Assembly: GCF_053078305.1 (NCBI RefSeq)
Contig: NZ_CP166879.1
Strand: one strand, 5' to 3'
Length of the DNA stretch: 64,000 nucleotides
Below are positions 21,498-38,997 of the stretch, piece by piece (position 1 is the stretch's first letter; each line of letters starts with the position of its first letter). Under the pieces are notes generated by a model. That model was not told the DNA's origin and did not search any database. It was given only the letters and a program-made list of their open reading frames with translations. A program made the translations under genes and the position numbers.

Positions 21498-22427
21498 TTG
21501 AACAGCAGAAAATTTGCGAGCATGATCGCAATTATTTCACTGCCAGGGATATCAATGGCTTCCAGTAAATCGCTACAGCAGGCAATTGCCAATATAAAAA
21601 TCTGGCATAAGGGTGAACAGCGCGCGCCGCATAAGCCATTGTTATTGCTATACGTATTAGCGGGATACCTGCATGGACATCCGCGCCTTTTCGATTATGG
21701 CTCGGAAATCTACGAACCTCTGCACAGTTTACTGGAACGTTTTGGGCCACAGCGTTCACAGTACCGACCTGATATGCCGTTCTGGCGATTACAAGGCGAC
21801 GGATTCTGGCAATTACACAATGCCGAGCGTTGCTCAACAGCAGGGAGCAGCCGACAACCGCCAGTGAAGGAACTGAACGAATACCACGTTGCAGGCGGTT
21901 TCGATGAACAGCACTACGCCCTGGTAACCGGCAATAAAAAACTCATCAATACTCTGGCGCAACAGATACTCGAAGCGCACTTCACCGAGAGTATTCAGGA
22001 AGAAATTGCTGACGAGCTGGGTTTTGATCTCCAGCAAATCCGTAAACAGCGCGACCCGTTATTTCGCAAAAATGTATTACGCGCTTATAAATACCAGTGC
22101 GCGATATGTGGCTTTAATATGCGCCACGACGACACCACCGTCGCGCTGGAAGCGGCGCATATAAAATGGAAACAGCACGGCGGTCCTTGTGAAATTCCTA
22201 ATGGCCTGGCGCTTTGCGCAATTCACCATAAAGCCTTTGATAAAGGATCGATTGGCCTGGACGAAAATATGCGGGTACTGGTATCAGATGCGGTAAACGG
22301 CGGAGGGATCGTTGAGAGATTATTCTGGGATTTTGACGGGAAAACTATTGCGTTGCCGCAGGTGCGTAAAAATTACCCTTATGAGGGGTTTGTGGAGTGG
22401 CATCGGAAAGAGGTTTTTAGGGGGTGA
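21498..22427 (+). CDS. HNH endonuclease-domain protein with ~180-aa N-terminal putative DNA-recognition domain (predicted restriction endonuclease type)
   Basis: C-terminal CAICGF...HIKWKQHGG...NGLALCAIHHKAFD HNH-like motif; divergent from preceding HNH gene. Confidence 0.6.
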   Translation: MNSRKFASMIAIISLPGISMASSKSLQQAIANIKIWHKGEQRAPHKPLLLLYVLAGYLHGHPRLFDYGSEIYEPLHSLLERFGPQRSQYRPDMPFWRLQGDGFWQLHNAERCSTAGSSRQPPVKELNEYHVAGGFDEQHYALVTGNKKLINTLAQQILEAHFTESIQEEIADELGFDLQQIRKQRDPLFRKNVLRAYKYQCAICGFNMRHDDTTVALEAAHIKWKQHGGPCEIPNGLALCAIHHKAFDKGSIGLDENMRVLVSDAVNGGGIVERLFWDFDGKTIALPQVRKNYPYEGFVEWHRKEVFRG

Positions 22428-23049: not shown

Positions 23050-25320
23050 CTAATCATTTCCCTTACGAATATATGGGCCAAAAGCCCAAGAATCATAATA
23101 AGGGTGATGGACTAGTTTTTCATTAAATCGAACACTATAAGTTAATTTTTTTATATTTTTACGTACAGCATTAATACTGGGCAAAGAGGAAAGATAATCT
23201 ATAAACTTATCGATAGTGATTTCCCCTTCGCAACACTCAAACCCATCAATGATATTTTTCGCCATTTTTCCATTTTCATTTGTTTGATATATCACTCCAG
23301 GTATTCGTTGAAAAAAACTAGATAATGCATATTTGTCCGCTACATATGTATCATCCACATGATATTTCCCACCGAGCATAGTTGTAGTAACAATAAGCTT
23401 ATACACACCTTTGGGTTGCCATGTTGATGGTAGTTCGAATTCTTTAATGATCACATCAAGATGATTAAGATAATGTTCAGAAATTCGATTTATTTGTTGA
23501 AAATAAGAACGCATAAATTTATTATTATGATCATGTATTAATGAGCTATCTCCAACGATGTTACACACTTGCTGATAGTACTTACCATAATATATTGGTT
23601 GACCATTTGATTTTAGTTCTGTAAAAATCAAACAATCATCCAGGAGAATCACGCAATCGCACTGATAATTAGCATGAGCATCAATTGGAGAAGCTTTAAT
23701 CCCCGCATCACGAACTTGTTTTATAAATTGTTGCTCATGAAATCGCCCTTTACTTGCTTGAGAAATTTTTTTGGAACCAAATAATGACATTAGAGAGCGA
23801 GTCACTGAGCTATTTGCTATTAATGCAGGCATTAAGCATAAACCGTCCATACAGGGAATAAATGGGCAATCATTAAGATCATGTGATTTTGAATTGAAGG
23901 TAAAATAATCTATCAGTTTTTTTGCTGCATCTGCTGCAATCCCCTTACGTTGAAAGAATGATAACCAACTCTCACGGCTTTTTATGATCAGCCAGCGATC
24001 CAACTGTAGGGGTATAGGTTTTGTCGATGAAAATCTTTTGCTCATTTCTTCTTTAGATAACTCGACTAAACATTGATAAGCGTGCACCCAATTAAATAAT
24101 GATATATTCCCATATTCTTCATGAAGGTCATCAGGAGATATATTTTCCAACTCGCTTAGATGAAATGAGCTAAAAACGCCATCAGAATTTAAGTAAGATG
24201 GCATATGATCCTTTACCCAACTATTTAGATGAAAATGTTTGTTACTAAATTCATGAACTTCGCTATATAGATGTGACGCTCTCATCATTAGTCTATTTCT
24301 TGCAATCTCATAATCTCGGTATAAACAAAAACTATCAACCTCAAGAGAGTAAATGTTATTATCCAATTTTGTAAATACTGCACTACTTAGTCTGAAAAAG
24401 TCTCTTACTCTGCTTAATGAGTCAAAAACATTCCACTCATTAAGGTACCCTCCCATTGAAAGCAAGGTTTGTTTATTCACACAAGAAGTTAGTTTCAATG
24501 GCTCATGAGTCCGTAAATAAGAAAATATTCGTCCGGTGTAATTGGCTACCTCATCAAATGCCCTATCGATAACTCGAAAATATTCGATATCAGGTTCAGC
24601 ATGAATATTAATATTTTCAGAAACGATTACTCTGCTTAATGAGTCAAAAACATTCCACTCATTAAGGTACCCTCCCATTGAAAGCAAGGTTTGTTTATTC
24701 ACACAAGAAGTTAGTTTCAATGGCTCATGAGTCCGTAAATAAGAAAATATTCGTCCGGTGTAATTGGCTACCTCATCAAATGCCCTATCGATAACTCGAA
24801 AATATTCGATATCAGGTTCAGCATGAATATTAATATTTTCAGAAACGATAAATAATGGAAAAATCCTCTTCATTTTTTTAGGATCATTGACCACAACCAA
24901 GGATGATAATGATGATAAAAACATCTCACAAAACATGATGAGATTAAGTATTAATGCATGTGATTTTTTTGTATTTTTACGCCAAATACCAGCACATTTT
25001 GTAGCCGCAAAGAAAGAATTATTTATATCATGCATAATTTTACATTGACTCTCGAACTCAGAAATTAGTTCAATGTTATCAGGAAATGAGTTTACTAGCT
25101 CATTAATACATTTTTTGAATGTATTGTTATACTCAACTTCAGTCTGAACTGAAAATCTATTATAATAGATGGAAGATATTCTCAGCACATCCAAGGCGAT
25201 ATCTATACTAATATCATCTCTTTTTATGTACTCACAAAAAAAAGAACAAAACTGTTTCGGGTCGTTAGCAAGATTACTAATTCTAGTGGTATCATAAACT
25301 TTTTCCATTTTTCCATACAT
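23050..25320 (-). CDS. Hypothetical 756-aa AT-rich orphan protein; C-terminal region has a PD-(D/E)xK-like motif (CDCVILLDD...FTELK)
   Basis: Long uninterrupted ORF, low GC, no recognisable family; nuclease motif is inference only. Confidence 0.6.
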   Translation of the reverse strand: MYGKMEKVYDTTRISNLANDPKQFCSFFCEYIKRDDISIDIALDVLRISSIYYNRFSVQTEVEYNNTFKKCINELVNSFPDNIELISEFESQCKIMHDINNSFFAATKCAGIWRKNTKKSHALILNLIMFCEMFLSSLSSLVVVNDPKKMKRIFPLFIVSENINIHAEPDIEYFRVIDRAFDEVANYTGRIFSYLRTHEPLKLTSCVNKQTLLSMGGYLNEWNVFDSLSRVIVSENINIHAEPDIEYFRVIDRAFDEVANYTGRIFSYLRTHEPLKLTSCVNKQTLLSMGGYLNEWNVFDSLSRVRDFFRLSSAVFTKLDNNIYSLEVDSFCLYRDYEIARNRLMMRASHLYSEVHEFSNKHFHLNSWVKDHMPSYLNSDGVFSSFHLSELENISPDDLHEEYGNISLFNWVHAYQCLVELSKEEMSKRFSSTKPIPLQLDRWLIIKSRESWLSFFQRKGIAADAAKKLIDYFTFNSKSHDLNDCPFIPCMDGLCLMPALIANSSVTRSLMSLFGSKKISQASKGRFHEQQFIKQVRDAGIKASPIDAHANYQCDCVILLDDCLIFTELKSNGQPIYYGKYYQQVCNIVGDSSLIHDHNNKFMRSYFQQINRISEHYLNHLDVIIKEFELPSTWQPKGVYKLIVTTTMLGGKYHVDDTYVADKYALSSFFQRIPGVIYQTNENGKMAKNIIDGFECCEGEITIDKFIDYLSSLPSINAVRKNIKKLTYSVRFNEKLVHHPYYDSWAFGPYIRKGND
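24406..24849. repeat. Perfect tandem duplication of a 222-bp unit (2 copies) inside the 756-aa ORF, in frame (74-aa duplication)
   Basis: Identical DNA blocks beginning tactctgcttaatgagtcaaaaacattcc at 24406 and 24628; protein repeat VIVSENINIHAEPDIEYFRV... x2. Confidence 0.9.
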
Positions 25321-25996
25321 CCTATTGTCTAAATTACTATAAAACTAGCCACTTAACTAATAATTATAAATTTCATCTTTTACACCTTGCATTTTTATAA
25401 CCAATGAAATCTACAACAAGCAACTGATGGATAATCCGATATTGGTCGCATTTAATGGCATGGTAGCAAAGTTTTCATCACATACCTCCTTTGCACCAGA
25501 ATAAACGCCAGAGATCTGAAATTGCGAGTACACTACAGAAATTGTACTGCTGGTCCCATCAGCATAAAACCATAGTTACACAGGTAATCATCATTATTCG
25601 CCAAGATAATAAATATTATTCGGTAGAATAGCGTTCTCAGGTGGTCAGTAAAATTGTCTTCAACAAGATGTCTGCGCATCTCGTCTGCTAGCCCTACATA
25701 ACTGCTCTCGACCGAAACTATTTATTGAATGTTCACCAAGGTGGGCGTGGAGACAAAATGACGTCTTTTGATATTAGCTACCTGAGCCACATGGTCAAAA
25801 CGTTCAAGTAGCATAGCGAAACCACCCTGCCCACGTAATGTGGACGATGCAGCTTCCAGCCAGAGCAAACTTGGGACCATCGACTACAAAATGAAGAATA
25901 CTGAACTGCTTTTCTGGCAGGCCTATATACTGCACGGATATGGGTGATTTCAGACACAAAAAAAGCCGCCCTTGAGCGACTCGATTTGCATACGGT

Positions 25997-26020
25997 GTGG
26001 TGCGAAGGCCGGACTCGAAC
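25997..26020. repeat. Direct repeat of leuX 3' end (attachment-site repeat) marking the distal boundary of the P4-like element
   Basis: tggtgcgaaggccggactcgaac matches leuX 3' end tggtgccgaaggccggactcgaac (38719-38742) at 23/24. Confidence 0.8.
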
Positions 26021-26285
26021 ATTTAATTAAACAACTGTATTTAAATAGTTTTTGTATTTAAAAATGAATTGATGCCCCTTTTTGTGCCCCCATTACCAAA
26101 ATAACAACCTAACCTTGTACTAAAAAAGAGATTTTTCAATGTAGGCACTCTGGTTCGGCTACGCTTACCGGAGACGAACCTGAACATAAGAAATCTGAGA
26201 TAACTTCATAGTAATCATCTTTAACACTTTTGACCAATAATATCTATCATAAAGGCAGAGAAATTAATCTCTGCCTTTATTAAGG

Positions 26286-27154
26286 TCACATAAAAAGATT
26301 ATTAATTAGAGTACACTGTTGACATCCATTAATATCTACAGCTTTTAAAAAATCTGTGTTACTAATCAAAACAGCATTACTAACACCTGAAAACTGCAGC
26401 TGTGCATACATACCTAAGATAGATTTTTTTTCGTAATACTGAGATCTTCCTGTATAACTTTCACCAGTATTAGAACTTATAAATCGCCTCGTTCTTTCTT
26501 GTATCAATAAATTATTTTTAAGGAAGCTCAAAATATCTTGCTGCAATTGTTTGTTTTTGTTATGAAAATAACATAACAATTGATCCTCTAAGGTACCAAG
26601 CTGAGTGTTAACGTCATGAAAAATATACCCCCCCATTCACTCCCATTAAACTCAATAATACTTCCATTGGAGAGTTGAGTAGTATCTTCTAAACCTATCT
26701 CATTTTTAATCTCTGTTATTCTGGCATCAATGCCAAGTTCATCAGCATCAAAAAAATATAAAAATCTATATGCAATTTCTATACTGAAGTCATCTGTACC
26801 AGAAAGTTCTTTATACATAGTGACTAACTCAGCCCTTTCACGACTTCTGCCATCACCATTTAGATTATGTATAAAAATTAAGTTCCCGTTATGATAGAAA
26901 CAAACAGAAGGTAGTTTTGGCCCGTTTGGCTGAAAGCCAAGTTTTTTATCTGGAATTCTTACTTGACTTAGTTCTTTTTCAAAGCGTTTATCAAACGGTG
27001 GAGGTAATTGACCAATTTTAAGATCTTGAAGTTGGAATCCATTAACTAAAAGAATTCTGCTAAGAAAAGCGACGTCATGCTGTCCTTCACAAAAGGCAAC
27101 TATGACTCTATTATAAGATACACTCACAATTTTAGCCTCTAATATCAAGATCAA
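26286..27154 (-). CDS. Toprim-like (OLD/DUF4435-like) putative nuclease partner, split into two overlapping frames (188 aa + 116 aa) by a frameshift at a G7 homopolymer (26628-26634)
   Basis: Candidate Toprim acidic residues (CEGQHD ... FFDADE); the two frames join if the run were G8; start ambiguous (TTG at 27154 or GTG at 27127 preceded by GAGG). Confidence 0.5.
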
Positions 27155-29369
27155 TATTTTTTATCAAATAGCCAAATCTTTCGCCATCAGCCCTTTTCAC
27201 TACTACTTTATCGTCAACTTTGCTTAACTGAAATCCAGTAATGCAATCATTATTATAATCATTATTTAAAAAAGCTCTGATACATTCACCCGAATGTGAC
27301 GTAAGGAACACTTGCACATTGAAACGTTCTGCAAGTTGTTGCGTAAATTTAGTAAACTCCAATAGTAAACTATAATGAATCGCAGTTTCAAATTCATCAA
27401 TAAAAAGTACACCGTTACGACATGCAGCAAAAGATAAAGCTATATAAAAGATGCGCTGAATACCCTCTCCATAAGAAGTAAGATCGAAACTTCTGTTAAA
27501 ATCATATGCTGATTCTACGATAAACCTTTTGAGCTCCATGTCTTCAGTAAATCTGACATCTTTTATCGTTGGCTCAATTTTATTCATGAATTCAATAACA
27601 AGGCCGATAGCGGATTGTATATTTAAATCATCTGATTCTGAGTCAGTTACAGACGTTAAATTTGCACCTATACTTTTGTTATAATCAGTGAGCAAATCGT
27701 CTATATCGTAGAAATAAGGGCTTTTAAATGACGATGAACACAAATGCGAAACTTGATCAGCGTTCCTTCTCATACGTTCATGGATAAAAGTATGGACTGT
27801 GTTATTTCTAAATTCTCCATCAATGCTAGACTTTAAGCTATAAGATGCTATATAGTCATCTTGTTTATCAATTGAAGAATCATCATATTTAATCATTTCA
27901 ACAGTAACATTACTATCATCAAATACTCCTGACAAGATTATTTTATCTTGGAAAAGAGCATTTAGCAATGTTGGACTCAAAGTACTGATTTTATTTTTTT
28001 GCCTAATAAGATTAAAATGCGATGAAATATCATTACGCTGCGTCAATAAGTAAATTGCTTCAAGCAATGAAGTTTTTCCAGCATTATTAAAGCCAGCAAT
28101 GATATTAATCTTATTGAAATTATCCAATGAGAAGTTTTTAAAGAATTTATATTTTTTGATATAAATGGATTTAAAATGTTTTTTTACTCCATACTCAAAA
28201 TTAGTTGTATAGTTTCCTCCTTCGATATTTATAGCCATCTGCTTTGGCATTATTTGTGTTAGTTTTTCTTTTGCATCATCTAATAAGCGCAAATCCTCTT
28301 GGTTTATGAGGCTACTATATAGATTTAAATCCTTTAAGGCGTCTTCAAGCTTGCTTAAAGCATTTTTATAGTTTTGCTGATTTACTGAACCGCTCGCAGC
28401 TAATCCTCTTGCAAGGCTACGTTCATCCTCCATTACCTTCAAGGCTTTTTCATTATTGATGAACAAAGCAAGATCTCGTATCTCAAGAGATTTAGTAATT
28501 ATAGGTTCTAGCTCAACGTATTCACCATTACTTTCCTCTTCAATATCATCTTCTAGCTCATTTTTCTCAAGGTATTCATCTGTTTTAGAGATCCACGAAA
28601 AAAGCCTATCAAGATTCACTAAATTTCTAGCATAATAACCGTTATCACTCCAGTCTAACCAAGATTTAATTACAGGCTTTTTGATTATTTCTTCAAAAAT
28701 ACCAAACATACTTGGTTCGAATTGCTCACCATACTCACTTGTTTTATATAAGGAAATTAGATTATAAACTCTAAGCATAGAGCGAAGACGCGTTTTAGAA
28801 ATACCGAGCGAACTAACTAGCTCATCTTCTTTTTCAACATACTCATCTCGAGTTTTGTCTTCATATGGTTTTAAAAAATCATAAAGCAGTTTGGACTGAT
28901 TATATGTTGACCACTTTTTATTACCACTTATATGCTTTAATCCCATTACAATCAGATGTTTTTCAACATCTTGATTATTATGGATTTCGAAAGGAACACT
29001 TCTAAAAATAGATGGATCTAGTTTTCCAATATCAAACCCCTTTTCATATGCTTCTTGCAATGCTTTCAGCGCCGTTACACGACGATTTCCCTCAAGGACT
29101 AAATAATTGTTATCTCCTAAATCCTTTACTTGAATAACATCAACATCTAAGTATCCATTAGATTTAAAACTTGCTATTAGATCTTTGATATTCTCTTGTC
29201 TATTTCCTTCTATAAAAAAGCGAGTCCTACGCTGAATTGTTGGATCTAGCATGTCCTTTTCTGAGACTGGCTTGTGCTGGTCATTGTCAACAAAACGGTA
29301 GTTATTAGGATCTAGAAATAAATTTTTTAAATTTTTGCTAATGCGCGGGCGAATTTGCTCGACATTCAT
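27132..29369 (-). CDS. ParB/Srx-like N-terminal domain fused to ABC-type (AAA_15/21, OLD/AriA-like) ATPase; putative anti-phage defence ATPase
   Basis: N-terminal LVLEGNRRVTALKAL (ParB GxRR-like); C-terminal Walker A GFNNAGKTS, signature-like SYGEG, Walker B VLFIDEFE, H-loop TSHS; GAGGTGA RBS before ATG. Confidence 0.65.
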   Translation of the reverse strand: MNVEQIRPRISKNLKNLFLDPNNYRFVDNDQHKPVSEKDMLDPTIQRRTRFFIEGNRQENIKDLIASFKSNGYLDVDVIQVKDLGDNNYLVLEGNRRVTALKALQEAYEKGFDIGKLDPSIFRSVPFEIHNNQDVEKHLIVMGLKHISGNKKWSTYNQSKLLYDFLKPYEDKTRDEYVEKEDELVSSLGISKTRLRSMLRVYNLISLYKTSEYGEQFEPSMFGIFEEIIKKPVIKSWLDWSDNGYYARNLVNLDRLFSWISKTDEYLEKNELEDDIEEESNGEYVELEPIITKSLEIRDLALFINNEKALKVMEDERSLARGLAASGSVNQQNYKNALSKLEDALKDLNLYSSLINQEDLRLLDDAKEKLTQIMPKQMAINIEGGNYTTNFEYGVKKHFKSIYIKKYKFFKNFSLDNFNKINIIAGFNNAGKTSLLEAIYLLTQRNDISSHFNLIRQKNKISTLSPTLLNALFQDKIILSGVFDDSNVTVEMIKYDDSSIDKQDDYIASYSLKSSIDGEFRNNTVHTFIHERMRRNADQVSHLCSSSFKSPYFYDIDDLLTDYNKSIGANLTSVTDSESDDLNIQSAIGLVIEFMNKIEPTIKDVRFTEDMELKRFIVESAYDFNRSFDLTSYGEGIQRIFYIALSFAACRNGVLFIDEFETAIHYSLLLEFTKFTQQLAERFNVQVFLTSHSGECIRAFLNNDYNNDCITGFQLSKVDDKVVVKRADGERFGYLIKNIDLDIRG

Positions 29370-29634
29370 ATGTCACCTCAATGGTGTAGGAACTATACAA
29401 TGCAACTTTACTTGATACCTCAGCAATCAACAACTTCATGTTTTTGAAACTAAGCGCGCGCAGCCCCGCACGCCTGCCCGCTTCGCTTAACAGACTGGTT
29501 TTCATGCACCTCATAAATCGTCTCAGAAGCCACCAAACAAGGGTTTTCTCGTCAAAAATGGTGCATAAGACTCATGCGTTTTCATGCGCCATAGACATGC
29601 ACTCATTCGCTCTCATGCCAGCCAGGAAAAGGGG

Positions 29635-29662
29635 ATAAAAAATCCCGGTACTGGACCGGGAT
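29635..29662 (-). terminator. Rho-independent terminator after the delta/Ogr gene
   Basis: Stem atcccggt-loop-accgggat followed by T-run on the minus strand. Confidence 0.55.
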
Positions 29663-29682
29663 TACGTGGGCGTTCTTTCTAA

Positions 29683-29964
29683 TCAGACAGGAATCTGCTG
29701 ACGGCTTGACAGTTTTGACGCGGAGCCATAGCGATTAAGTGTTTGCTGTTGTTTTTCCGGGGATTGTGCTTTGTCTGATAGCTGTTCATTGCGTCGGGGT
29801 TTCATGATTATCTTATCCACACTCTCCAGTGCCGTAAATGTGCAGGAACATTCCAGATTCTGGCACTGATACCACGAGCGTTTAACTGACGGAGCTTCAT
29901 AGGCTGCTGTTCTGGCGTGTGCAACTGTACCGCATTCCGGACATTTAAGTGCCATTAATATCAC
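29683..29964 (-). CDS. Ogr/Delta-family zinc-finger late-gene activator
   Basis: MALKCPECGTVAHARTAAYEA...WYQCQNLECSCTF matches the Ogr C4 zinc-finger pattern. Confidence 0.8.
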   Translation of the reverse strand: MILMALKCPECGTVAHARTAAYEAPSVKRSWYQCQNLECSCTFTALESVDKIIMKPRRNEQLSDKAQSPEKQQQTLNRYGSASKLSSRQQIPV

Positions 29965-30512
29965 TCCTGTATATCGTTAATGTCATTCAGGCGTTGCTGA
30001 AAACGCAGATGTTGTGCCGGGGTGTAAGAGCCCTGGCAATCACGAATCATCCCGGGGTCAGGCATCAAACCGGATTCATCCAGGATCTCACGATAATCCC
30101 CGGCAATTTCAGGCGGTGTTATTGTCAGCTGGCGAACCAGAGCACTGCGTAATATACGGGACGCAACGTCAACCCCTCCGCGCCCCTTCAGGAACGGAGC
30201 CAGTGCAGATGTCAGGGCTGCCCCATTCGCCTGCATAAAATTGCTGAGAGCGGCTTCTGTGCAGGCTTCCATCAGTAAATGCTGCGAGTAAATGCATTCG
30301 CGCGCAGCACAGTTAATTTGCCATTTCAGCACATCCAGACGTTCCCGCAGTAATTCGAGCTGTCGGGCATAATCTGCTGGTTTTTCTGTGGCAGCGAGGA
30401 GAGATGCTATCTGTTGTTCAACGGCTTTTCGGCTCTCACTATGTCCGGCCCACAGAATACGGGCATTCCGAAAACTGGTAAGTGCCTGGTCAGGCGTGCC
30501 TCGGGCCGTCAT
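29961..30512 (-). CDS. P4-like late-operon protein (tentatively Psu-like)
   Basis: 183-aa helical protein in late operon between Sid-like and delta genes; assignment by size and position only. Confidence 0.4.
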   Translation of the reverse strand: MTARGTPDQALTSFRNARILWAGHSESRKAVEQQIASLLAATEKPADYARQLELLRERLDVLKWQINCAARECIYSQHLLMEACTEAALSNFMQANGAALTSALAPFLKGRGGVDVASRILRSALVRQLTITPPEIAGDYREILDESGLMPDPGMIRDCQGSYTPAQHLRFQQRLNDINDIQE

Positions 30513-31252
30513 ACTGCTTTCTCCTTCTCAGCAAGTTCCTGACGAACCTTAATTTTATGCATAGCTGCCGGAGAGAGTTGATTACTGAAATCCAGACGCG
30601 CCGCATAATCCGGGGCAATTCCCGCCAGTTTAAACACCGGGTCCTGTTCAGGCATCGCATCGTTAGCCAGAGCCGGTCTGGTGATATGTTTATGAATAAA
30701 GTCTTTCAGCACTGTGTCCGGGTCATTAACTGAATTCACCACACCCACAACGGCACTGGCTTCCCGGCCCATTGTGGATTTAAGCAGGCTCAGCGTCTGA
30801 ATAAGCGCTTTTCCATGCGATTGCATAAAATCTTCCCAGATTTGTTTTGCGCGAATATCCACAAGAATGTTATGCGCGTGGATATACTTTCCGGCTAATT
30901 CCGCAGCTTTCTGCGGCAAAAGTGCATTTTCGCTTTCCTGAGCCGCCAGCAGCTCATCAAAATCCTCAAGCGTTTCTCGTCCCAGCGCAATTTCCGTGCG
31001 CAGTTTTTTCATTTCCTTTGAAACCACGCCCTGACTTTCACGAAACAGCGTGCGCCACTCCTCATTCAGTGTGTTCGTCGTGGCTTCCATCTCAGCGCGA
31101 CGCTGGCGGATTGTCGCAATATTATCCGCTGCCGCTTTCTGCTGACGACGTGCTTCAAGCCATGCGTTTCTGGCTGTGTTCATGGTTTCCAGTGCCCGCT
31201 GCGTTACAGCCGGAAAAGTGGAAAGGTTGTTATTCACTGCGGTGTTGTTCAT
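30509..31252 (-). CDS. P4-like late-operon protein (tentatively Sid-like capsid size-determination scaffold)
   Basis: 247-aa helical/coiled-coil-like protein, first gene of late operon; assignment by size and position only. Confidence 0.4.
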   Translation of the reverse strand: MNNTAVNNNLSTFPAVTQRALETMNTARNAWLEARRQQKAAADNIATIRQRRAEMEATTNTLNEEWRTLFRESQGVVSKEMKKLRTEIALGRETLEDFDELLAAQESENALLPQKAAELAGKYIHAHNILVDIRAKQIWEDFMQSHGKALIQTLSLLKSTMGREASAVVGVVNSVNDPDTVLKDFIHKHITRPALANDAMPEQDPVFKLAGIAPDYAARLDFSNQLSPAAMHKIKVRQELAEKEKAV

Positions 31253-31430
31253 GGCTTCTCCTGTCGGGTTGGTTCGTTACGTCAATTGTGTCGTGGCTGA
31301 CACAAGCACACTATCGGTGCTCAGTGTGTGGTGGCTGGCACAACGGGCGCTTGCGGTTATTCAGACGTGGCTATGAAAGCCAGCCAGATAAAAATGCCCT
31401 CAGTTTCAGTCTGCTTTATGTCCCTGATGC

Positions 31431-31618
31431 GGTGGAACAGGTGAAACATGTGTTACAGCTTTGTTTTATAAAGCACTTATATACACTGCACCGGTGGAAC
31501 ATCGCGGGTAACAAGGTGGAACAGCGGATTGGCTGGCGTTACATCTGTTCCACCTCACTATTTCAGAAGGTGGAACAGGTTCAGCCCTGTAAAATACGGT
31601 TGTTCCACCTGTTTCACC
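31431..31618. repeat. Iteron array (GGTGGAACA / TGTTCCACC, at least 7 copies in both orientations); probable P4-type ori/crr alpha-binding sites
   Basis: Repeats read directly downstream of the alpha gene; resemble the P4 TGTTCACC iteron. Confidence 0.6.
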
Positions 31619-31652
31619 TGTTACCCTTAATAAATAAGACTCACGCAAAGCC

Positions 31653-34325
31653 TTAACCCGGCACCTCGCTGTTGAAGACATAGAGCCTGCGGGGATTCAT
31701 CTCTGGCGGGCGAATGGTTGTCTGGAGTTTGCCATCAGTGGAGGGCAGCAGGTATCCACGATCTGCGCACAGACGAGCCACCTTGCGCGGGTCAAATCCC
31801 CTGCAGATTTCTTTCCAGCCGGACGGCATGACATAGAACGTAGTGACAGCTTCCGTGCCCTGCGCGGTACTGCCTTTCTCCACCCTGCGCCAGCCCACCA
31901 TATTGCCGGGGCGGTTGCGCTCGTCATACCAGTCTGCAAAGCGGCTGTACTGATTCGCGGTAAAGAAACTGCGAACCTGCTCCAGTGCGGCAATATCTTC
32001 CTGATTGGCGGTGTGCCCGCGATCTTTCAGCCATGCGTTCAGGCAGACGCGGGTTGCCCGCAGTGCTTCACCCTCAGGCCAGCCGGTGATACCCAGACGG
32101 GTTGCCAGTTCACCCGCCATCGCCACCAGTGCAAAGCGATTCACAGCCCGGCCCACCTGGTTGCCTGCATCTTTCGGAGTCAGGGCGGCAGCATATTCCT
32201 TCATCAGCGATTTTGCCTGTGCCGTTAGTCCGTTAAGATCAGCGGTCAGTGCTTTCAGCCACTCCCGGAACGGCGAACCGTAGTAGCAGGACGTGGCCCA
32301 TTCAAGATGCTCTGCCAGAGCCTTGCCGCTGTCGAAGCCGTGCAGCTCCTCAAAAACGCCAAACTTCCCGGAATCGCTGGGGATCTGGATCATCCTGACT
32401 TCCATCCCGGCAAAAGTACGCTCACCGGCCTTTGCCGCATGTTCGGTCAGAGATAACTCGCCAGTTGAAAAGAACAACAGGCGCCACTGCTTACGGGTAC
32501 GCAGCTCACCGTCCGTACCGGCACGACCCTTGCCCTGACCGTTTGCCAGCATGTAGGCGATACTGCCTGCCTCGCGTCCGTCAACTTCCCGGATCTCATC
32601 AAGCATCATGGCGGCATCGTTGCGGCGGCTGGCGCATCCCTCCAGCGCGTTGCCGGTGGCCCGCCATGTCTGCCAGTAGTCAGGCCCGCCGCAGACGGAG
32701 GTTGCCGCTTTCATGGTGGTGGTCTTACCGTCTGTCGATTCCCCTTTGAGGTGGTAGCCGCCGCCGTCCATACCAACCAGCCGTAACAGTGGTGCAGCAA
32801 AGGCCAGGCTGACAGCAAATGCCACGCGGGAGTTGCCGGTACAGTAGCGGGATACGTTCTCCCGCCATTCCTCTGTTGTACCCGACACGCGGAAATCACG
32901 CCCCTGCACGGAAGTGGTCTGGAGAATGACACCCTCTGCACCTTCACCGCTGACCTCATCCTGCAGGACGTAAACCTGACCATGCCAGCCAGTACGGCTG
33001 ACGCAGGTCACGCGGCGTTCCGGTTTACACAGTGAGATATATTCCATCAGGCGTGCGCGTGCCTCACCGGTGGTGCTGATATAAGACAGCCCGTTAACCA
33101 GCAGTACCCGGCGCAGTTCCTCACCACTGCCGCTCAGCATTTCCATCGGCATCGCCCAGCGGCGACGCTCACCCCATGTATCTTCCCATTCCAGCAGTCG
33201 TCCGAAGTTACCGCCATCGGCATCGCAGGTGATTGCCGTAACGCGCAGCGGGCTGCATATTTTGACGTTCTGGATCTCCGTCTCACCGTTGCGCTGTACC
33301 TGCTTTTCATACCAGAGATATTCCTGGGTAAGACGGAACCCGTGCGGCAGTTGCGTGCGGCCTTCCCCGCACAGTACCAGACCGTTGCGAAAGACTTCAC
33401 GGGCACGGGTAATACCGTGCTCCCGATGAAAGTCATTCCAGTCAGCCTTAATCTCTCCTGGTGGCAGCGTCATCCAGCCGCCAACAGCTTTTGCCGCCCG
33501 TTCAGCAAAGGCTCTGCCGGGATTCTCCCCCCCGTCCTGAAAATCGTTATCACCGGCGATGATAATTTTTACCTCAGGCCAGCGTGCCCGCAGCGACTGC
33601 GCCACATTGGGCAGGTTGCCCGCAGATATGGCAGCCACTACGCATCCGGCAGTGAGCTGGCTTACCGTCAGCGCCGTAGCGTAACCTTCGGTAATCACCA
33701 CCTGTACCGGTGGTTCAGACGGTAACGGGCTGAGCGACACAAACGCGCCTTTCATCGTGCTGCCGGGCAGTATGCTTTTTTCACCCGTCGGGGCGATAAG
33801 CTGTGCACCGGTCACGGCTCCGGTGTTGGTCGTGAGTGGTAACAGCAGAGAACCGGCAGGAAAATCCTTACCGCTGATATGCTGCACGCTTCCGGTCAGA
33901 GAGGCTGGGTATCCGGCGAACCCTTTTCCTGTCAGATAGGCGCTTTCTCCCGTGTGGCTCTCTTTCATCAGCGCCGCCACGGTAAGACCCATGTCGCGTT
34001 TAGGGGCTTTTTGTCTGGCAGGCTTAACAGGCAGTTCCTGCACATCCGGCACATTAAGCATCTGCGCCACCTCCTGCGCAGCCTTTCTGACGCTGTAACC
34101 GGTTACGAGCTTAACCAGATCCAGACCGTCACCATTGCCACACTGGCTGCAGATCCACGTCCCGCGCCCGTCAAGGTCATCAAGGCGAAAACGATCCTTG
34201 CCCCCACATTTCGGGCAGGGACCGTGCCTGCCGTTTTCAGGTACATCAATACGCAGCATCTGCAGAATAACGGGCCATTTCCCCCGCGCGGCGGCTGAAA
34301 TCTGCGTAACCGTCTGTATTGTCAT
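31653..34325 (-). CDS. P4 alpha-like primase/helicase replication protein
   Basis: 890 aa; N-terminal Cys-rich zinc-binding region (CPKCGG...CSQCGN), ATP-binding GESTDGKTT motif. Confidence 0.8.
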   Translation of the reverse strand: MTIQTVTQISAAARGKWPVILQMLRIDVPENGRHGPCPKCGGKDRFRLDDLDGRGTWICSQCGNGDGLDLVKLVTGYSVRKAAQEVAQMLNVPDVQELPVKPARQKAPKRDMGLTVAALMKESHTGESAYLTGKGFAGYPASLTGSVQHISGKDFPAGSLLLPLTTNTGAVTGAQLIAPTGEKSILPGSTMKGAFVSLSPLPSEPPVQVVITEGYATALTVSQLTAGCVVAAISAGNLPNVAQSLRARWPEVKIIIAGDNDFQDGGENPGRAFAERAAKAVGGWMTLPPGEIKADWNDFHREHGITRAREVFRNGLVLCGEGRTQLPHGFRLTQEYLWYEKQVQRNGETEIQNVKICSPLRVTAITCDADGGNFGRLLEWEDTWGERRRWAMPMEMLSGSGEELRRVLLVNGLSYISTTGEARARLMEYISLCKPERRVTCVSRTGWHGQVYVLQDEVSGEGAEGVILQTTSVQGRDFRVSGTTEEWRENVSRYCTGNSRVAFAVSLAFAAPLLRLVGMDGGGYHLKGESTDGKTTTMKAATSVCGGPDYWQTWRATGNALEGCASRRNDAAMMLDEIREVDGREAGSIAYMLANGQGKGRAGTDGELRTRKQWRLLFFSTGELSLTEHAAKAGERTFAGMEVRMIQIPSDSGKFGVFEELHGFDSGKALAEHLEWATSCYYGSPFREWLKALTADLNGLTAQAKSLMKEYAAALTPKDAGNQVGRAVNRFALVAMAGELATRLGITGWPEGEALRATRVCLNAWLKDRGHTANQEDIAALEQVRSFFTANQYSRFADWYDERNRPGNMVGWRRVEKGSTAQGTEAVTTFYVMPSGWKEICRGFDPRKVARLCADRGYLLPSTDGKLQTTIRPPEMNPRRLYVFNSEVPG

Positions 34326-34705
34326 ACTTCCCCCTGATACAACGTCACACCGGTACTGCAGAAGTCATCAAAGGCCGCCGGAAGCGTGCGGTACATCTCC
34401 GCCATCACTTCACAGCCGCGCGCGGTCAGTACCGGCGGCGCGGTCAGCAGTGACGGCTCCAGCATGTCAGTCAGCAGTGCCAGCGCGGCAGCGGCGCCCT
34501 GTGCTTCGCCGTACTCGTTAATCAGTGCGCACTCGATATGCAGCGCAATGGCCATTTCAATACGCTCCACCGTCAGGCTGTGCGGACCATACTGATCACT
34601 GCCAGTTTCGTTCAGCATTTTCTGCCGCCATGCTGAAGCAATAGCCCGTCGGTAAAGCGCGGTGGTCATTTCTGCCGGGAAAATGGAAACCTGCGGCTGG
34701 TTCAT
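34322..34705 (-). CDS. Hypothetical P4-like early protein
   Basis: 127-aa ORF overlapping alpha start by 4 nt (translational coupling). Confidence 0.5.
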   Translation of the reverse strand: MNQPQVSIFPAEMTTALYRRAIASAWRQKMLNETGSDQYGPHSLTVERIEMAIALHIECALINEYGEAQGAAAALALLTDMLEPSLLTAPPVLTARGCEVMAEMYRTLPAAFDDFCSTGVTLYQGEV

Positions 34706-34986
34706 CTGGCACCTCCTTCAATCAGTGCGCAGCTGTGTGCAATATCCGTCAAATCTGCCCGCAGGTACTCCATCAGCGCGGCGACACCAGGCGCACAGCC
34801 TGCGTCCAGTGCTCCGGCCTGAGACGGGTATTCAGAAAAGAGAAGCTGGAGCATGTCGCAGGCATTTCTTGCGCGGATCAGCTTTCCGAAACCGTCCTCT
34901 GACAACCCATAGGCAAAAGCACCGGTATTGTGTTTTTCAGGCAAAGTGTGGCCCTGAGCACCGTTGTGCCCGTTTGAAATATTCAT
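34702..34986 (-). CDS. Hypothetical P4-like early protein
   Basis: 94-aa ORF overlapping the next gene by 4 nt. Confidence 0.45.
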   Translation of the reverse strand: MNISNGHNGAQGHTLPEKHNTGAFAYGLSEDGFGKLIRARNACDMLQLLFSEYPSQAGALDAGCAPGVAALMEYLRADLTDIAHSCALIEGGAR

Positions 34987-35017
34987 CGTGAATTACTCCG
35001 TTTTCAGCGGTATTTTG

Positions 35018-35407
35018 TCAGAGAAACTTTGAATAGTGACCGTCGTCAGGCTCAGCAGAACGCCGTATGGTACGCTCCCGCCAGCGGATAAATAGCACAG
35101 ACGGATGCAGTGTCAGCGGGCCGGAACCACTACTGCCTGCAGGAGCTGGTGCAGGCTTAAAGAGCGGTACATCAAACAGGCGCGTATACCGCTGTTCAAA
35201 CCATGCCAGAGGGCAGGAAGAAAGCTGGTTGTCGCTGTCATGACGTATCAGCACTTCACAGCTGAATTCAGGATTAACCAGCGCCACAGAGGGCGAGGCT
35301 TCTATTAATCGGATAATCGTGACCGTCCAGCCACGTTCATGCCGCCAGCGTTCGCCGGGGTGCGGATAATTACGCATGTTCACCTCCGCAGGGAATGCGC
35401 CCGGCAA
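35018..35407 (-). CDS. Hypothetical P4-like early protein (true start possibly the internal Met at ~35377)
   Basis: 129-aa ORF in the same early-operon orientation. Confidence 0.4.
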   Translation of the reverse strand: MPGAFPAEVNMRNYPHPGERWRHERGWTVTIIRLIEASPSVALVNPEFSCEVLIRHDSDNQLSSCPLAWFEQRYTRLFDVPLFKPAPAPAGSSGSGPLTLHPSVLFIRWRERTIRRSAEPDDGHYSKFL

Positions 35408-35621
35408 AGCTCAGTACACAGTCCGGGGCAAGTCTGCGCCGCGCTGACCGCTCATTATCTGCGGTGAGCCTTAACATCACAGGACGGGCATTGCGTTGAC
35501 TGCGGTTGATCGCCGCAAATAACCAGGTACACTTCTGTTTAGCCATCTTCGTTACCTCATATAGCGGATTGGTCAGAAGCCCGGTTAGTGTTGCTGCACT
35601 GTCGGGCTTCGCACTCACAAG

Positions 35622-35713
35622 GTGAATCGCACCTTTAATTTTAAAGCTACCCTTAAGTGAATCGCACTTCAAGCTTTTTATTATCATTTTTTTTGCGTAT
35701 ACTGAATCGCACC
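35622..35713. promoter_or_regulatory. Three direct repeats of GTGAATCGCAC (35622, 35657, 35702) in the divergent control region; putative operator
   Basis: Repeats read directly upstream of the 61-aa + strand ORF and the early operon. Confidence 0.45.
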
Positions 35714-35733
35714 TAACGCGAGGAGATCCAGTA

Positions 35734-35919
35734 ATGGCAACGAGTTCAACTAACAACAAGTCGCAGCAACTTAATGCTCGTTTCCCACATGATGTAGTTG
35801 CAGAATTAGAAAGCAACCTTGAAGATGGAGAAACGAAAGCGCAATTCATTGTTACTGCTGTAAAAGGCGAGATTAAACGCCGACAGCGCAGGAAAAATAA
35901 GCCAGAGCAAGGAAGTTGA
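35734..35919 (+). CDS. Small basic protein (61 aa), possible DNA-binding regulator
   Basis: ORF with GAGGAG RBS; basic C-terminus (IKRRQRRKNK); no family verified. Confidence 0.4.
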   Translation: MATSSTNNKSQQLNARFPHDVVAELESNLEDGETKAQFIVTAVKGEIKRRQRRKNKPEQGS

Positions 35920-36030
35920 ATAGAGAAGCCAACAGACGTTCTCTCTGGTCCCATGTTAATTTCAGTAAGCGACAATATTTTTAAGCCCACAAATTCATTA
36001 TGTCGGGCTTTTTTATTAGTGATTTTCATA

Positions 36031-36246
36031 TCACTCACCACGAGAGGCATATATTTGCTCTTGAATCCAGTGATCAACTTCGCTTTCAACGAATGAAATT
36101 GCACGAGTTCCTATTTTCACCGGACGGGGAAATGTATTGTTTGCAAGCTGTTTGTAAAGCCATGCCTTGCTACGCTGAACGCGTCTTAATACCTCTTTTG
36201 CTGAGATAAGAGTCTGATTATCTGAAAAGCTGTTTGCATATTCCAT
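36031..36246 (-). CDS. alpA: AlpA-family phage transcriptional regulator / excisionase-like protein
   Basis: ...ISAKEVLRRVQRSKAWLYKQLANNTFPRPVKIGTRAISFVESEVDHWI AlpA-like HTH. Confidence 0.75.
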   Translation of the reverse strand: MEYANSFSDNQTLISAKEVLRRVQRSKAWLYKQLANNTFPRPVKIGTRAISFVESEVDHWIQEQIYASRGE

Positions 36247-36622
36247 CTTGTTACTCCGTGTTCTACTTAAGTTCACGGTGACTTTAAACACTGGGAAAAA
36301 GTGATTCTAGTGATAATGGAATCTATTAAGACAAACATTGATTCTATTGAAAAACAATAATCTCCACTGAAAAAAAGAAGTAATATTCATATGAAAGAAC
36401 ACGGAAAGAAGGAAATGCACAAAACAATAAAATTAATAAAATTCATATAGATAGGATGGAAAATCAAAAAATCATACGTCAAAAGGTATTATTACATTTT
36501 AACGATTCATATTACCTAGGAATTAGCACAGTATTACACCGTATTACATCGTATTACCCCCTATAGCCCCTTAGAGCCTCTTGTGGCCCTTCTATTGAGA
36601 GATAGCCAGAAAATTAATAAAT

Positions 36623-37261
36623 TCACTCTCCGTATTTTATAATGTCTTTCCCCAGCTTTATTTTCTTATAAAACGTAGCTTTTTTAATCCCTTTCATTAG
36701 AATCTCATTCTCATTACAAAAAGAAACAATATCATTATATATAACACTATTATCGCTATAACTTACCTTTCCATGTCTCTTAAGCAATTCAATTAGTAAA
36801 TAAATTAATTTACAACTATAATTATCCTCATCATCTTTTCTGTACTGCCCTCTACCATTACTCCTTAATTTTTTACCAACTTCACATAATTCACTTCCTC
36901 CTAACGTCATTAGAATATCGCTCCAATCTTTATTTTTTACCTGTTGTCGTAATGCGTTCTCAATTCTCTCCTTAATCTCCACAGGTACAATACCTTCCCT
37001 CTGAAAGATATAAGCAGCAGTTAATAATAAGTTCGCCTCCACTTTTTGCGTGGCGGATACGTTTTTATATTCATTAATTAATTGTAGATTTCTGGTTATT
37101 GCCTTTCTTAATCTAATAACCTCTTTTAATTGAACCTCAGTCAATTCATCATTTTCGGTATCATAGTCAAAACCATTCATAGCAAGCGCCACTTCGTGTG
37201 GCGTTATGTAAGTTAACCTATTAAAATAAAACAAATTATTATCAAATTGAGTATTGTTCAT
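36623..37261 (-). CDS. Hypothetical AT-rich protein (212 aa) between integrase and alpA; possible accessory cargo
   Basis: Clean ORF, low GC, no recognised motifs. Confidence 0.5.
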   Translation of the reverse strand: MNNTQFDNNLFYFNRLTYITPHEVALAMNGFDYDTENDELTEVQLKEVIRLRKAITRNLQLINEYKNVSATQKVEANLLLTAAYIFQREGIVPVEIKERIENALRQQVKNKDWSDILMTLGGSELCEVGKKLRSNGRGQYRKDDEDNYSCKLIYLLIELLKRHGKVSYSDNSVIYNDIVSFCNENEILMKGIKKATFYKKIKLGKDIIKYGE

Positions 37262-37290
37262 TTAAATCTCTCCGCAGCCCCCAATGGTAA

Positions 37291-38553
37291 TTATTTTCCA
37301 TGCATACGCGCAAAATCATATGGTGTGATAGATCCATTCTTATTAGCATCAATATAATCAGCCCACCATTGCAACATTAATCTTCTTTCTTCAAGATATT
37401 CGGAAGTATGCATATATGAACCTTTCACGTTTTTTCGTTCAACGTGGCTTAACTGTCTTTCAATGGCATCATCATTCCATAGTTTCGACTCACTTAGCGC
37501 ACCACGCGCCATAGTTCTAAACCCATGACCACATACTTCAGTTTTCGTATCATATCCCATTACACGTAAGGCGTTATTTACTGTATTTTCACTCATTACT
37601 TTTTTAGGATCATGATCGCTGGGAAATATAACCTCACCTTTACCACTCAAGGCATGTAAACGTTTAAAAATATCAAATGCTTGTTTGCTAAGCGGAACAA
37701 TATGTTCAGTTTTCATCTTCATCCCACGCTCAGAGTGTTTTACGCCGGGAATAGGCTTACGAATTCCGGGTATTGTCCACTCGCTTCGTTCAAAGTTAAC
37801 CTCACTCCAGCGAGCAAAACGCATCTCACTTGAACGTATAAATGTGAGTAGCGTTAATTCAACGGCAAGCCGTGTCATTAGTCGCCCTTTATAGCGTGAT
37901 AGTCTTTCAAGAAGCTCAGGAATTCTTTTTGGGGGTAGTGCTGGGTGGTGGGTTGCTTTAACGCTTAAAAGCGCTCCAGCCATATCGCATGCAGGATTTG
38001 ATTCAAGCAGGTCATTCTGCACACCAAAACGCATAATTGCGGTTACGCGCTGCATCAGTCGCTGCGCGACATCATGTTTACCTGCCGTATCGACAGCTTT
38101 GATTGGATTGAGAAGCTGGCTGGTTCTCAACGTTCTGGCATCGATTTGACCTATCGAGGGGAAAATATACTGCTCAAGTGTCAGCAGAACACGACGGCTA
38201 TGATCTTCGCTCCAAGTAAGGTTACTTGCGTGCCATTGCCTTGCGATAGTTTCAAATAAATATGCCCCCTCAATTTCAGCTTGTGCCCCCTTTTGCTCAG
38301 CTTTGGGGTCAATACCCTGAGACAACAATTTCTTTGCTGCATCGCGCTTACCCCGCGCTTCAGCCAAAGTGACAGTCGGGTATACACCAAAAGCGAGTCG
38401 ATCTTCCTTTTTGTCAGAGGGGCGGCGATATTTCATGCGCCAGTACTTAGAACCTTTAGGGGAGACCTCAAGATACAAGCCGCCTCCATCAGCCATTTTA
38501 TAAGCTTTCTCTTTCGGCTTTGCGGTCTCTATCTGGCGAGCGTTGAGTTTCAT
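37291..38553 (-). CDS. P4-type tyrosine integrase
   Basis: N-terminus MKLNARQIETAKPKEKAYKMADGGGLYLEV...; immediately adjacent to leuX. Confidence 0.9.
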   Translation of the reverse strand: MKLNARQIETAKPKEKAYKMADGGGLYLEVSPKGSKYWRMKYRRPSDKKEDRLAFGVYPTVTLAEARGKRDAAKKLLSQGIDPKAEQKGAQAEIEGAYLFETIARQWHASNLTWSEDHSRRVLLTLEQYIFPSIGQIDARTLRTSQLLNPIKAVDTAGKHDVAQRLMQRVTAIMRFGVQNDLLESNPACDMAGALLSVKATHHPALPPKRIPELLERLSRYKGRLMTRLAVELTLLTFIRSSEMRFARWSEVNFERSEWTIPGIRKPIPGVKHSERGMKMKTEHIVPLSKQAFDIFKRLHALSGKGEVIFPSDHDPKKVMSENTVNNALRVMGYDTKTEVCGHGFRTMARGALSESKLWNDDAIERQLSHVERKNVKGSYMHTSEYLEERRLMLQWWADYIDANKNGSITPYDFARMHGK

Positions 38554-38718
38554 TTTGGGGGCACAAATCCTCATCGAATTGACATGCCCCCGATTATGCC
38601 CCCAAAAGAGGGTAGACTACAAGAGACCAACAAAGACCATTAGATACCATACTTTACTTGTTTTTTAAGGATTTTTTTGTATTTAGAGACTTCAGGAAAC
38701 GTCAAAAGAAGTGTTAAT

Positions 38719-38803
38719 GGTGCCGAAGGCCGGACTCGAACCGGCACGTATTTCTACGGTTGATTTTGAATCAACTGCGTCTACCGATTTCGCCACTTCG
38801 GCA
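38719..38803 (-). tRNA. leuX: tRNA-Leu (anticodon CAA)
   Basis: Minus-strand GCCGAAGTGGCGAAATCGGTAGACGCAGTTGATTCAAAATCAACCGTAGAAATACGTGCCGGTTCGAGTCCGGCCTTCGGCACCA; 85 nt with CCA end. Confidence 0.93.
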
Positions 38804-38997
38804 CTGAAGAGGTATGCGGAAAACGTTGTGGATTATACCTGTCGCACGCCACCATGCAAGCGCCAGCTTGCTCGCACCTCGCTAAGTGCTGAAATTTTCA
38901 GCATTGCATACAGCGATGTGTAACCTTTGTCACACTCCAGGCACCCCTCCCTGCCATGCTCTACACTTCCCAGACAACACCAGAGAAGGACCAAAAA

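Follow-up and report, generated by a model that had tools for sequence, protein, structure and literature searches.

On the minus strand of a 64,000-nucleotide stretch of DNA (NCBI RefSeq assembly GCF_053078305.1, contig NZ_CP166879.1; hereafter the window), a run of seven G's divides what reads like a single gene for a Toprim-like effector into two overlapping open reading frames. What does this break represent: an error of sequencing or assembly, a mutation that inactivates the gene, a slipped-strand switch that turns it on and off, a programmed frameshift, or a gene that works as two separate halves? The original prediction, made from the letters of the window, had raised the first four. 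The features on which the question turns are the following:

26628..26634, minus strand: G7 homopolymer, shortened by one base from a G8 run whose codons TGG GGG GGG stand for Trp165-Gly166-Gly167
26588..27127, minus strand: N-terminal PDC-M38B fragment, 179 aa from a GTG at 27127, identical to the recorded protein P0001
26286..26636, minus strand: C-terminal PDC-M38B fragment, an open reading frame of 116 aa covering residues 166-280, identical to the recorded protein P0002
27132..29369, minus strand: PDC-M38A, intact, 745 aa, the partner of the split gene, ending 4 nt before M38B

Read directly, the plus strand has C7 at 26628-26634 with A and A/T on its flanks, and the minus strand has G7 (GAATGGGGGGGTATATTTTTCATGAC; within a longer reading, GGGAGTGAATGGGGGGGTATATTTTTCATGAC). 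In the list of open reading frames the upstream frame starts at a TTG (26588-27154, minus strand, 188 aa); the GTG start at 27127 is taken from the RefSeq annotation of relatives. Beyond the tract this frame runs for 12 codons to a TAG at 26588-26590, and the 179-aa fragment consists of 167 native residues followed by 12 out-of-frame, hydrophobic residues that are foreign to the protein. It retains the invariant Toprim-type Glu14 and Asp127-x-Asp129. The 116-aa frame begins at a fortuitous ATG, the last letter of which is also the tract's first G, and holds the invariant K235 and the QLQFS...N motif. The two frames and their coordinates are as originally described, and the expectation that one more G would fuse them also holds: the addition in silico gives a single open reading frame, 280 aa long if it starts at the GTG and 289 aa if at the TTG. 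G5 restores the frame too, and G6 does not. Runs of seven G's or C's occur five times in the window and are not rare per se; the significance of this one is its place within a gene, not its mere existence.

The restored 280-aa product matches the PADLOC profile PDC-M38B (PDLC04613) at positions 2-278 of 278, with an E-value of 1.4e-138, and its exact sequence is that of a protein on record from 395 contigs, and so the fused frame is no chance reading. Searches of Pfam gave no match to M38B even at E 10, NCBIfam and PHROG gave none, and PADLOC returned PDC-M38B profiles only, with no AriB/DUF4435 match in PADLOC or Pfam; a profile search of PDB sequences yielded chance-level matches only, and a literature search found no papers on PDC-M38, DUF3226 or either protein's RefSeq accession. 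PF11536/DUF3226 is found in some distant homologues of M38B. By sequence profile, the protein falls in none of the Pfam Toprim, DUF4435 or OLD families. The label of Toprim-like effector is supported at the level of fold and motif, not by any sequence profile: M38B has a Toprim fold and, as candidates for the acidic residues that go with it (Glu in the first strand, plus a DxD motif), E14 and D127-x-D129, which are invariant alignment columns in 31 homologues. The comparison table for M38B lists the uncharacterised archaeal protein PH0156 at 16.2, the Toprim region of Burkholderia OLD at 9.7, Thermus OLD at 7.8, GajA at 7.4 and a small Toprim protein at 6.7. The break has invariant residues before and after it, those in the C-terminal 113 residues being G178, L180, E181, K235, Q243-L244-Q245, S247, N251 and D259, and in the AF2 model (pLDDT 87) residues 163-170 form a beta-strand.

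The partner gene M38A matches the PADLOC profile PDC-M38A (PDLC04607) over positions 1-715 of 715, with 1109 bits, and has weaker PADLOC matches over its ATPase domain to AbiLi, AriA (E 3.6e-18), GajA and Old. Pfam finds AAA_21 (2.4e-16) and also AAA_15, while a ParB-like N-terminal domain is indicated by NCBIfam parB_part (8e-5, below its cut-off) and a PHROG ParB-like match (5e-6), with which a GNRR motif in the sequence is consistent. M38A is predicted from these matches to join a ParB-like domain to an ABC/OLD-type ATPase domain (AAA_21/AAA_15). Together the two genes match both profiles of PDC-M38, a candidate two-gene defence system in PADLOC, M38A directly and the adjacent M38B on its G8-restored product, the gene as sequenced in the window being in two frames. 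Directly 3' of the M38B stop, at 26251-26278 on the minus strand, is an 11-bp perfect inverted repeat (AAAGGCAGAGA ... TCTCTGCCTTT), which has the look of a terminator stem but lacks a T-run and was not flagged by the terminator scan.

Elsewhere, a G8 tract in an intact gene is the norm. All complete RefSeq E. coli genomes with the locus (34 of 34) match the window at 99.6% or more with exactly one extra base, and a synthetic query with the run set to G8 aligns to each of the 34 with no gaps. Each of three relatives that were fetched has G8 and a single annotated CDS of 843 nt. Of the two common haplotypes, one has its exact G8 protein on 395 contigs and the other on 447 (about 840 intact). 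Off-length runs make up about 4% of contigs (33 of about 875), counted as contigs or blocks and not as independent isolates; the index blocks of one haplotype give about 9%, which becomes about 4% once the second common G8 haplotype is added. Given a share of about 4%, the absence of off-length runs from the 34 finished genomes, many of which are clonal, is only mildly unexpected. A scan of metagenomes for G5-G11 variants found nothing, and a scan of viral contigs found the window's own element alone.

The homologues also bear on the idea of a functional split gene, whose two open reading frames would be made separately and assemble into an active enzyme. The fragments do overlap, covering residues 1-167 and 166-280, and the C-terminal frame has an ATG of its own. 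Separately encoded halves were looked for among representatives ranging from 93% down to 33% identity, and all 31 are single proteins of 266-291 aa, with no split homologue at any distance. In addition, the break falls within a beta-strand of the core sheet in the AF2 model, the ATG stands just 3 nt after an SD-like GGGAG, which is poor spacing, and the N-terminal fragment ends in its foreign hydrophobic tail. We consider such a split enzyme scarcely credible; some complementation is conceivable, as the two fragments jointly hold every native residue.

Is the G7 of the window, then, a miscount in a strain that truly has G8? Miscounted homopolymers are a common consensus error on some platforms, the locus set includes noisy assemblies such as L006, and the two loci that are 100% identical to the window, L008 (GCA_000736735.1) and L060, may be the same genome and lend it no independent support. 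Against this stands L005, an independent assembly of an SRA run, which has the same haplotype across M38 and the downstream flank and is also G7, and which is distinct from the window in lacking a 222-bp duplication and in 9 downstream and 38 upstream differences. The window's core genes are intact as well (20 of 20 in 25 kb, with no frame breaks), gene intactness having been used in place of a direct indel count because the nearest finished genome is just 98.6% identical; compared with a 1.4%-divergent genome, the core 25 kb shows only 2 gaps, across three other 7-base G/C runs. Moreover, many assemblies of short-read type contain G7 or G9 alleles. The sequences compared make a real G7 allele much more likely than an assembly error, and we rate a miscount in the window, the first of the options raised originally, as distinctly improbable.

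Both shorter and longer runs are indeed on record. The exact G7 products are P0001 (179 aa), recorded on at least 19 contigs, and P0002 (116 aa), on at least 11; the G9 products are P0004, on at least 14 contigs, and P0005, on at least 3, the proteins expected exactly from G9 being ...SEWGGVYFS (171 aa) and MSLMGVNGGGYIFHD... (123 aa). Sources of the G7 and G9 records include short-contig SRA assemblies and public-health draft genomes. Seven G7, four G9 (L011-L014) and ten G8 loci were fetched, and about 5.1 kb of the element plus flank was aligned. In the aligned loci, tract length is uncoupled from the haplotype and from the chromosomal context beyond the end of the element (attR), as the following backgrounds illustrate:

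Fic context: G8 in L015, G7 in L006, G9 in L014; 0 mismatches over about 8.5 kb
332-aa context: G8 in L024, G7 in L007, G9 in L012; 0 mismatches over about 8.5 kb
nanS context: G8 in L003, G7 in L004 and L010, G9 in L011 and L013; 0-1 mismatches over 5.6-7.9 kb
Integrase context: G8 in L016, G7 in L009, G9 in none; 0 mismatches over 6.9 kb

The occurrence of G7, G8 and G9 on matching backgrounds implies at least four to five independent contractions and three expansions. The length polymorphism among near-identical sequences that is looked for in a contingency locus is present, three backgrounds having all of G7, G8 and G9. Other indels in the aligned region of the element are a one-base gap near 29679, in the divergent haplotype of the window and L008, and a change from A8 to A7 in L006. 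The latter locus (CP165025.1, a complete genome with G7) has this second shortened run in the C-terminal part of M38B, at the equivalent of about 26431 in the window, which suggests a homopolymer-noisy long-read assembly and that some of the off-length records may be errors. Taken over all backgrounds, the alignments point to recurrent slipped-strand mutation at a true hot spot and not to a one-off error. Mutation-accumulation studies in E. coli have found that indel rates rise exponentially with run length, with 8-G:C runs as outliers (PMC8510543), and this effect can explain the recurrence without selection.

Our preferred reading, which we hold to be probable, is that a gene of 280 aa, intact in its usual state, is present in the window as an OFF allele at a hypermutable run. 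A G8 tract (TGG GGG GGG) would have lost one base by replication slippage to become G7, and the G7 allele would yield no functional effector while leaving its ATPase partner M38A intact, so that the system would be switched off. The loss of function is suggested by the removal of 113 residues with many invariant positions, and by the position of the break inside a core beta-strand. That the whole system would fall silent is argued from PARIS (AriA and AriB), which needs both of its genes and gets no defence from the ATPase by itself (PMC9122126); by this analogy, G7 most likely switches the system off with M38A left intact. The remaining run would still be slippery, and reversion to G8 would be possible. 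The locus may behave, in other words, as a low-rate stochastic ON/OFF site, with no evidence of having evolved for that. An inactivating mutation by strand slippage, one of the options put forward at the outset, is the one that best accommodates G8 in 34 of 34 complete genomes together with G7 and G9 on otherwise identical backgrounds, the inactivation itself being inferred.

Whether anything keeps the run in place can be judged from lineages that encode the same WGG with other codons, for which close relatives were fetched singly:

Closest sister lineage (666 contigs), 93% aa identity: TGG GGT GGT
Brenneria, 79% aa identity: GGT GGG at WGG
Two further lineages, 77% and 64% aa identity: GGA GGG at WGG
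P2-prophage lineage in Enterobacter (L055/L056), 65% aa identity: GGG GGG, an independent 8-G run

The tract is not conserved where synonymous alternatives exist, the run being missing in four of the five other WGG lineages, and the second Gly of the motif (167) itself varies across the family as G, A, T, C or S. A scan of genome contigs returned only distant relatives (25-44% identity) without WGG, which are uninformative on the tract. Judged by these codons, the run would be a lineage-specific accident of codon choice, with no sign of selection to keep it.

This comparison weighs on programmed recoding, by which G7 would still give the full-length protein through a -1 ribosomal frameshift on G_GGG_GGU or through transcriptional slippage, and so set the dose of the effector. 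Formally the site is there: in the zero frame of G7, TG G_GGG_GGU is an X_XXY_YYZ heptamer, a -1 slip on it leads into the wild-type WGGYIFHD, and a GGGAG motif stands 5 nt upstream of the run. However, the in-frame G8 form is the majority and the sole form in finished genomes, the G9 alleles would require a different shift, and the run is absent from sister lineages. In E. coli, slippage is poor on G-rich heptamers and on runs of seven G's, and the spacing of the SD-like motif is short for -1 stimulation. Neither a conserved configuration nor a downstream RNA structure was found, the 91 nt around and after the run folding with an MFE of -12.6 kcal/mol where shuffled sequences average -15.1 (z = +0.97), with no stimulatory structure. 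The programmed frameshift of the original prediction thus finds little in its favour and is very improbable, although leaky, low-level restoration of the frame from G7 is possible.

A more serious contender is an adaptive contingency locus, in which G8 is kept in this lineage because the satellite, or its host, gains from being able to turn a costly or autoimmune abortive-infection effector ON and OFF reversibly. Length shifts go both ways and recur on clonal backgrounds, and, among the members listed for the E. coli lineage, only P0003 is also disrupted internally, most of the other short forms being marked partial. GGG GGG is also found in a second, distant lineage, in a P2-like prophage, and pseudogenes of defence genes are otherwise reported to be rare in P4 and P2 elements (bioRxiv 10.64898/2026.02.27.708500). 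There is, furthermore, an exact precedent: in pglX of Streptomyces coelicolor an in-gene run of 8 G's is ON, and contraction to 7 G's or expansion is OFF (Sumby and Smith 2003, as reported in the passage on Pgl in PMC4365076), and the same passage gives a measured switching rate of 1e-2 to 1e-4, together with a measured phenotype.

The Streptomyces pglX G8 tract is the closest precedent for the tract in M38B, as both show a series of G7, G8 and G9 alleles in the coding sequence of a phage-defence gene, which here is a candidate one. The two differ in that Pgl is BREX-related and the gene concerned encodes a methyltransferase, whereas M38B encodes a Toprim-like effector; the host of M38 is, moreover, mismatch-repair-proficient E. 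coli, and its run is missing from sister lineages. With mismatch repair active in E. coli, an 8-G run is expected to switch far more slowly than classical contingency loci do. Homopolymer contingency loci are well known in restriction-modification genes of Haemophilus, Neisseria, Helicobacter and Campylobacter, where, as here, a slipped-strand change in a coding homopolymer toggles a defence gene. Those tracts are conserved, usually longer, and occur in species with weak or absent mismatch repair, whereas the tract of M38B is not conserved. The nearest sister lineage, which is also the more abundant one, lacks the run, as do three of the four other WGG lineages; off-length contigs come to about 4% with 0 of 34 among finished genomes, and PDC-M38 has no known phenotype. 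The slipped-strand switch that had been proposed is borne out in one part, slippage in both directions, and fails in the other, conservation of the tract, and we regard adaptive maintenance of G8 as rather unlikely.

The other systems closest to PDC-M38 include the OLD-family nucleases (P2 Old, BpOLD and TsOLD) and GajA of Gabija. With PARIS the pair shares an AAA_21/AAA_15 ATPase followed by a Toprim-fold protein, a two-gene operon and a place in the P4 hotspot, PARIS having been discovered in the same hotspot of P4-like satellites (PMC9122126). The differences are that AriB is a DUF4435/Toprim protein, whereas M38B has no AriB/DUF4435 match and has distant relatives in PF11536/DUF3226, and that M38A is longer at its N-terminus by about 390 aa, which include the ParB-like domain. 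The pair does not belong to PARIS, lacking an AriB/DUF4435 effector and matching AriA over the ATPase domain of M38A only.

The M38 pair rides on a P4-like satellite of about 12.7 kb that is integrated at tRNA-Leu in E. coli, and whose features in the window are:

26003..26020, minus strand: attR, where the 3' end of tRNA-Leu is repeated over 18 bp and the satellite ends, 266 bp past the M38B stop
29683..31252, minus strand: P4-type late genes, directly upstream of the defence pair
29683-29964, minus strand: ogr/delta zinc-finger gene, from RefSeq annotation and Pfam Ogr_Delta for the identical gene in relatives
29961-30512, minus strand: psu, from RefSeq annotation and Pfam Psu for the identical gene in relatives
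30509-31252, minus strand: sid-like gene, from RefSeq annotation of the identical gene in relatives
31653-34325: primase-like alpha open reading frame, further in, with a homologue annotated 'TOPRIM and DUF927'
37291-38574: integrase open reading frame, which adjoins tRNA-Leu(CAA)
38718..38802, minus strand: tRNA-Leu(CAA), of which the 3' part, 38724-38741, is attL

The 18-mer of attR has two exact copies in the window against none expected by chance. The element has the int, alpha, sid, psu and delta genes and the att repeats at a tRNA by which a P4-like satellite is recognised, the identities of sid, psu, delta and alpha resting on RefSeq or Pfam annotation of identical or near-identical genes in relatives, in which the P4 gene set is annotated as Icd-like, TOPRIM/DUF927 primase, polarity suppression protein and Ogr/Delta. 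An IMG/VR entry records 25985-38923 of the window as a viral contig. Rousset et al. described a variable hotspot for defence genes in P4-like satellites and a second one in P2-like prophages (PMC9122126), and the M38 pair occupies the variable defence position of this satellite. Homologues of M38A and M38B, the latter with 64-65% identity, also lie between the replication gene gpA and the portal or capsid genes of P2-like prophages, in Enterobacter and metagenome contigs (L055-L057), implying that the same candidate system is present in both the P2 and the P4 hotspots. In a single genome of the sister lineage without the G run (L046, GCA_045625325.1, locus 761-2996), M38A is split into open reading frames of 406 and 278 aa, and Klebsiella records include truncated forms of M38B of 214 aa (129 contigs) and 177 aa (123 contigs) that are broken elsewhere; the system is thus also lost by other routes.

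With the OFF allele as the preferred reading, the locus has consequences for annotation and for experiment. Annotation pipelines will give two 'hypothetical proteins' where the correct entry is a frameshifted PDC-M38B, and tools that search for defence systems may overlook the system or count it wrongly. The disrupted forms of PDC-M38 that recur and are most often recorded in E. coli trace back to one accidental 8-G run, and a site that keeps producing such pseudogenes departs, in a small but genuine way, from their reported rarity in the P4 and P2 hotspots. The G7 and G8 alleles are also a natural ON/OFF pair for probing the function of PDC-M38. It is a doubtful idea that G8 is a working contingency switch, with an OLD/PARIS-like abortive-infection effector flipping stochastically between G8 and G7 or G9 within E. 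coli clones. Were this so, the satellite or its host could escape autoimmunity or cost, or tolerate a helper phage, with the intact ATPase ready for reactivation, and the locus would be an enterobacterial counterpart of Pgl phase variation. If switching is fast and selectable, a homopolymer-driven, phase-variable abortive-infection effector is added to the P4-like satellites; if not, the gene is an ordinary pseudogene at a mutational hot spot.

Several features of the surrounding chromosome were noted in passing. Just outside attR, an open reading frame on the minus strand (23050-25320) contains a perfect tandem duplication of 222 bp (24405-24849; 2.0 copies, 100% identical), which repeats 74 aa in frame in a protein of 756 aa; locus L005, nearly identical in other respects, lacks the duplication, and its version of the gene encodes 678 aa. 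The 756-aa protein has no significant Pfam-type annotation and matches weakly PADLOC PDC-M29B and a PHROG of unknown function. An HNH-type open reading frame of 309 aa lies at 21498-22427 on the plus strand, between the satellite and the nan genes; its relatives are annotated as a ScoMcrA-like, phosphorothioated-DNA-binding restriction endonuclease. This satellite-to-nan stretch is highly variable among strains, with Fic genes, integrases, type I restriction-modification systems and helicases, and is a chromosomal defence island abutting leuX. On the other side, the core genome at 39000-63900 (the idn operon, lptFG, pepA, valS, argF and others) has at most 98.6% identity to any of 5,426 complete E. 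coli genomes, implying that the window comes from a rather divergent lineage; the most divergent gene there is yjgL, with 87% identity and 36 gapped alignment columns.
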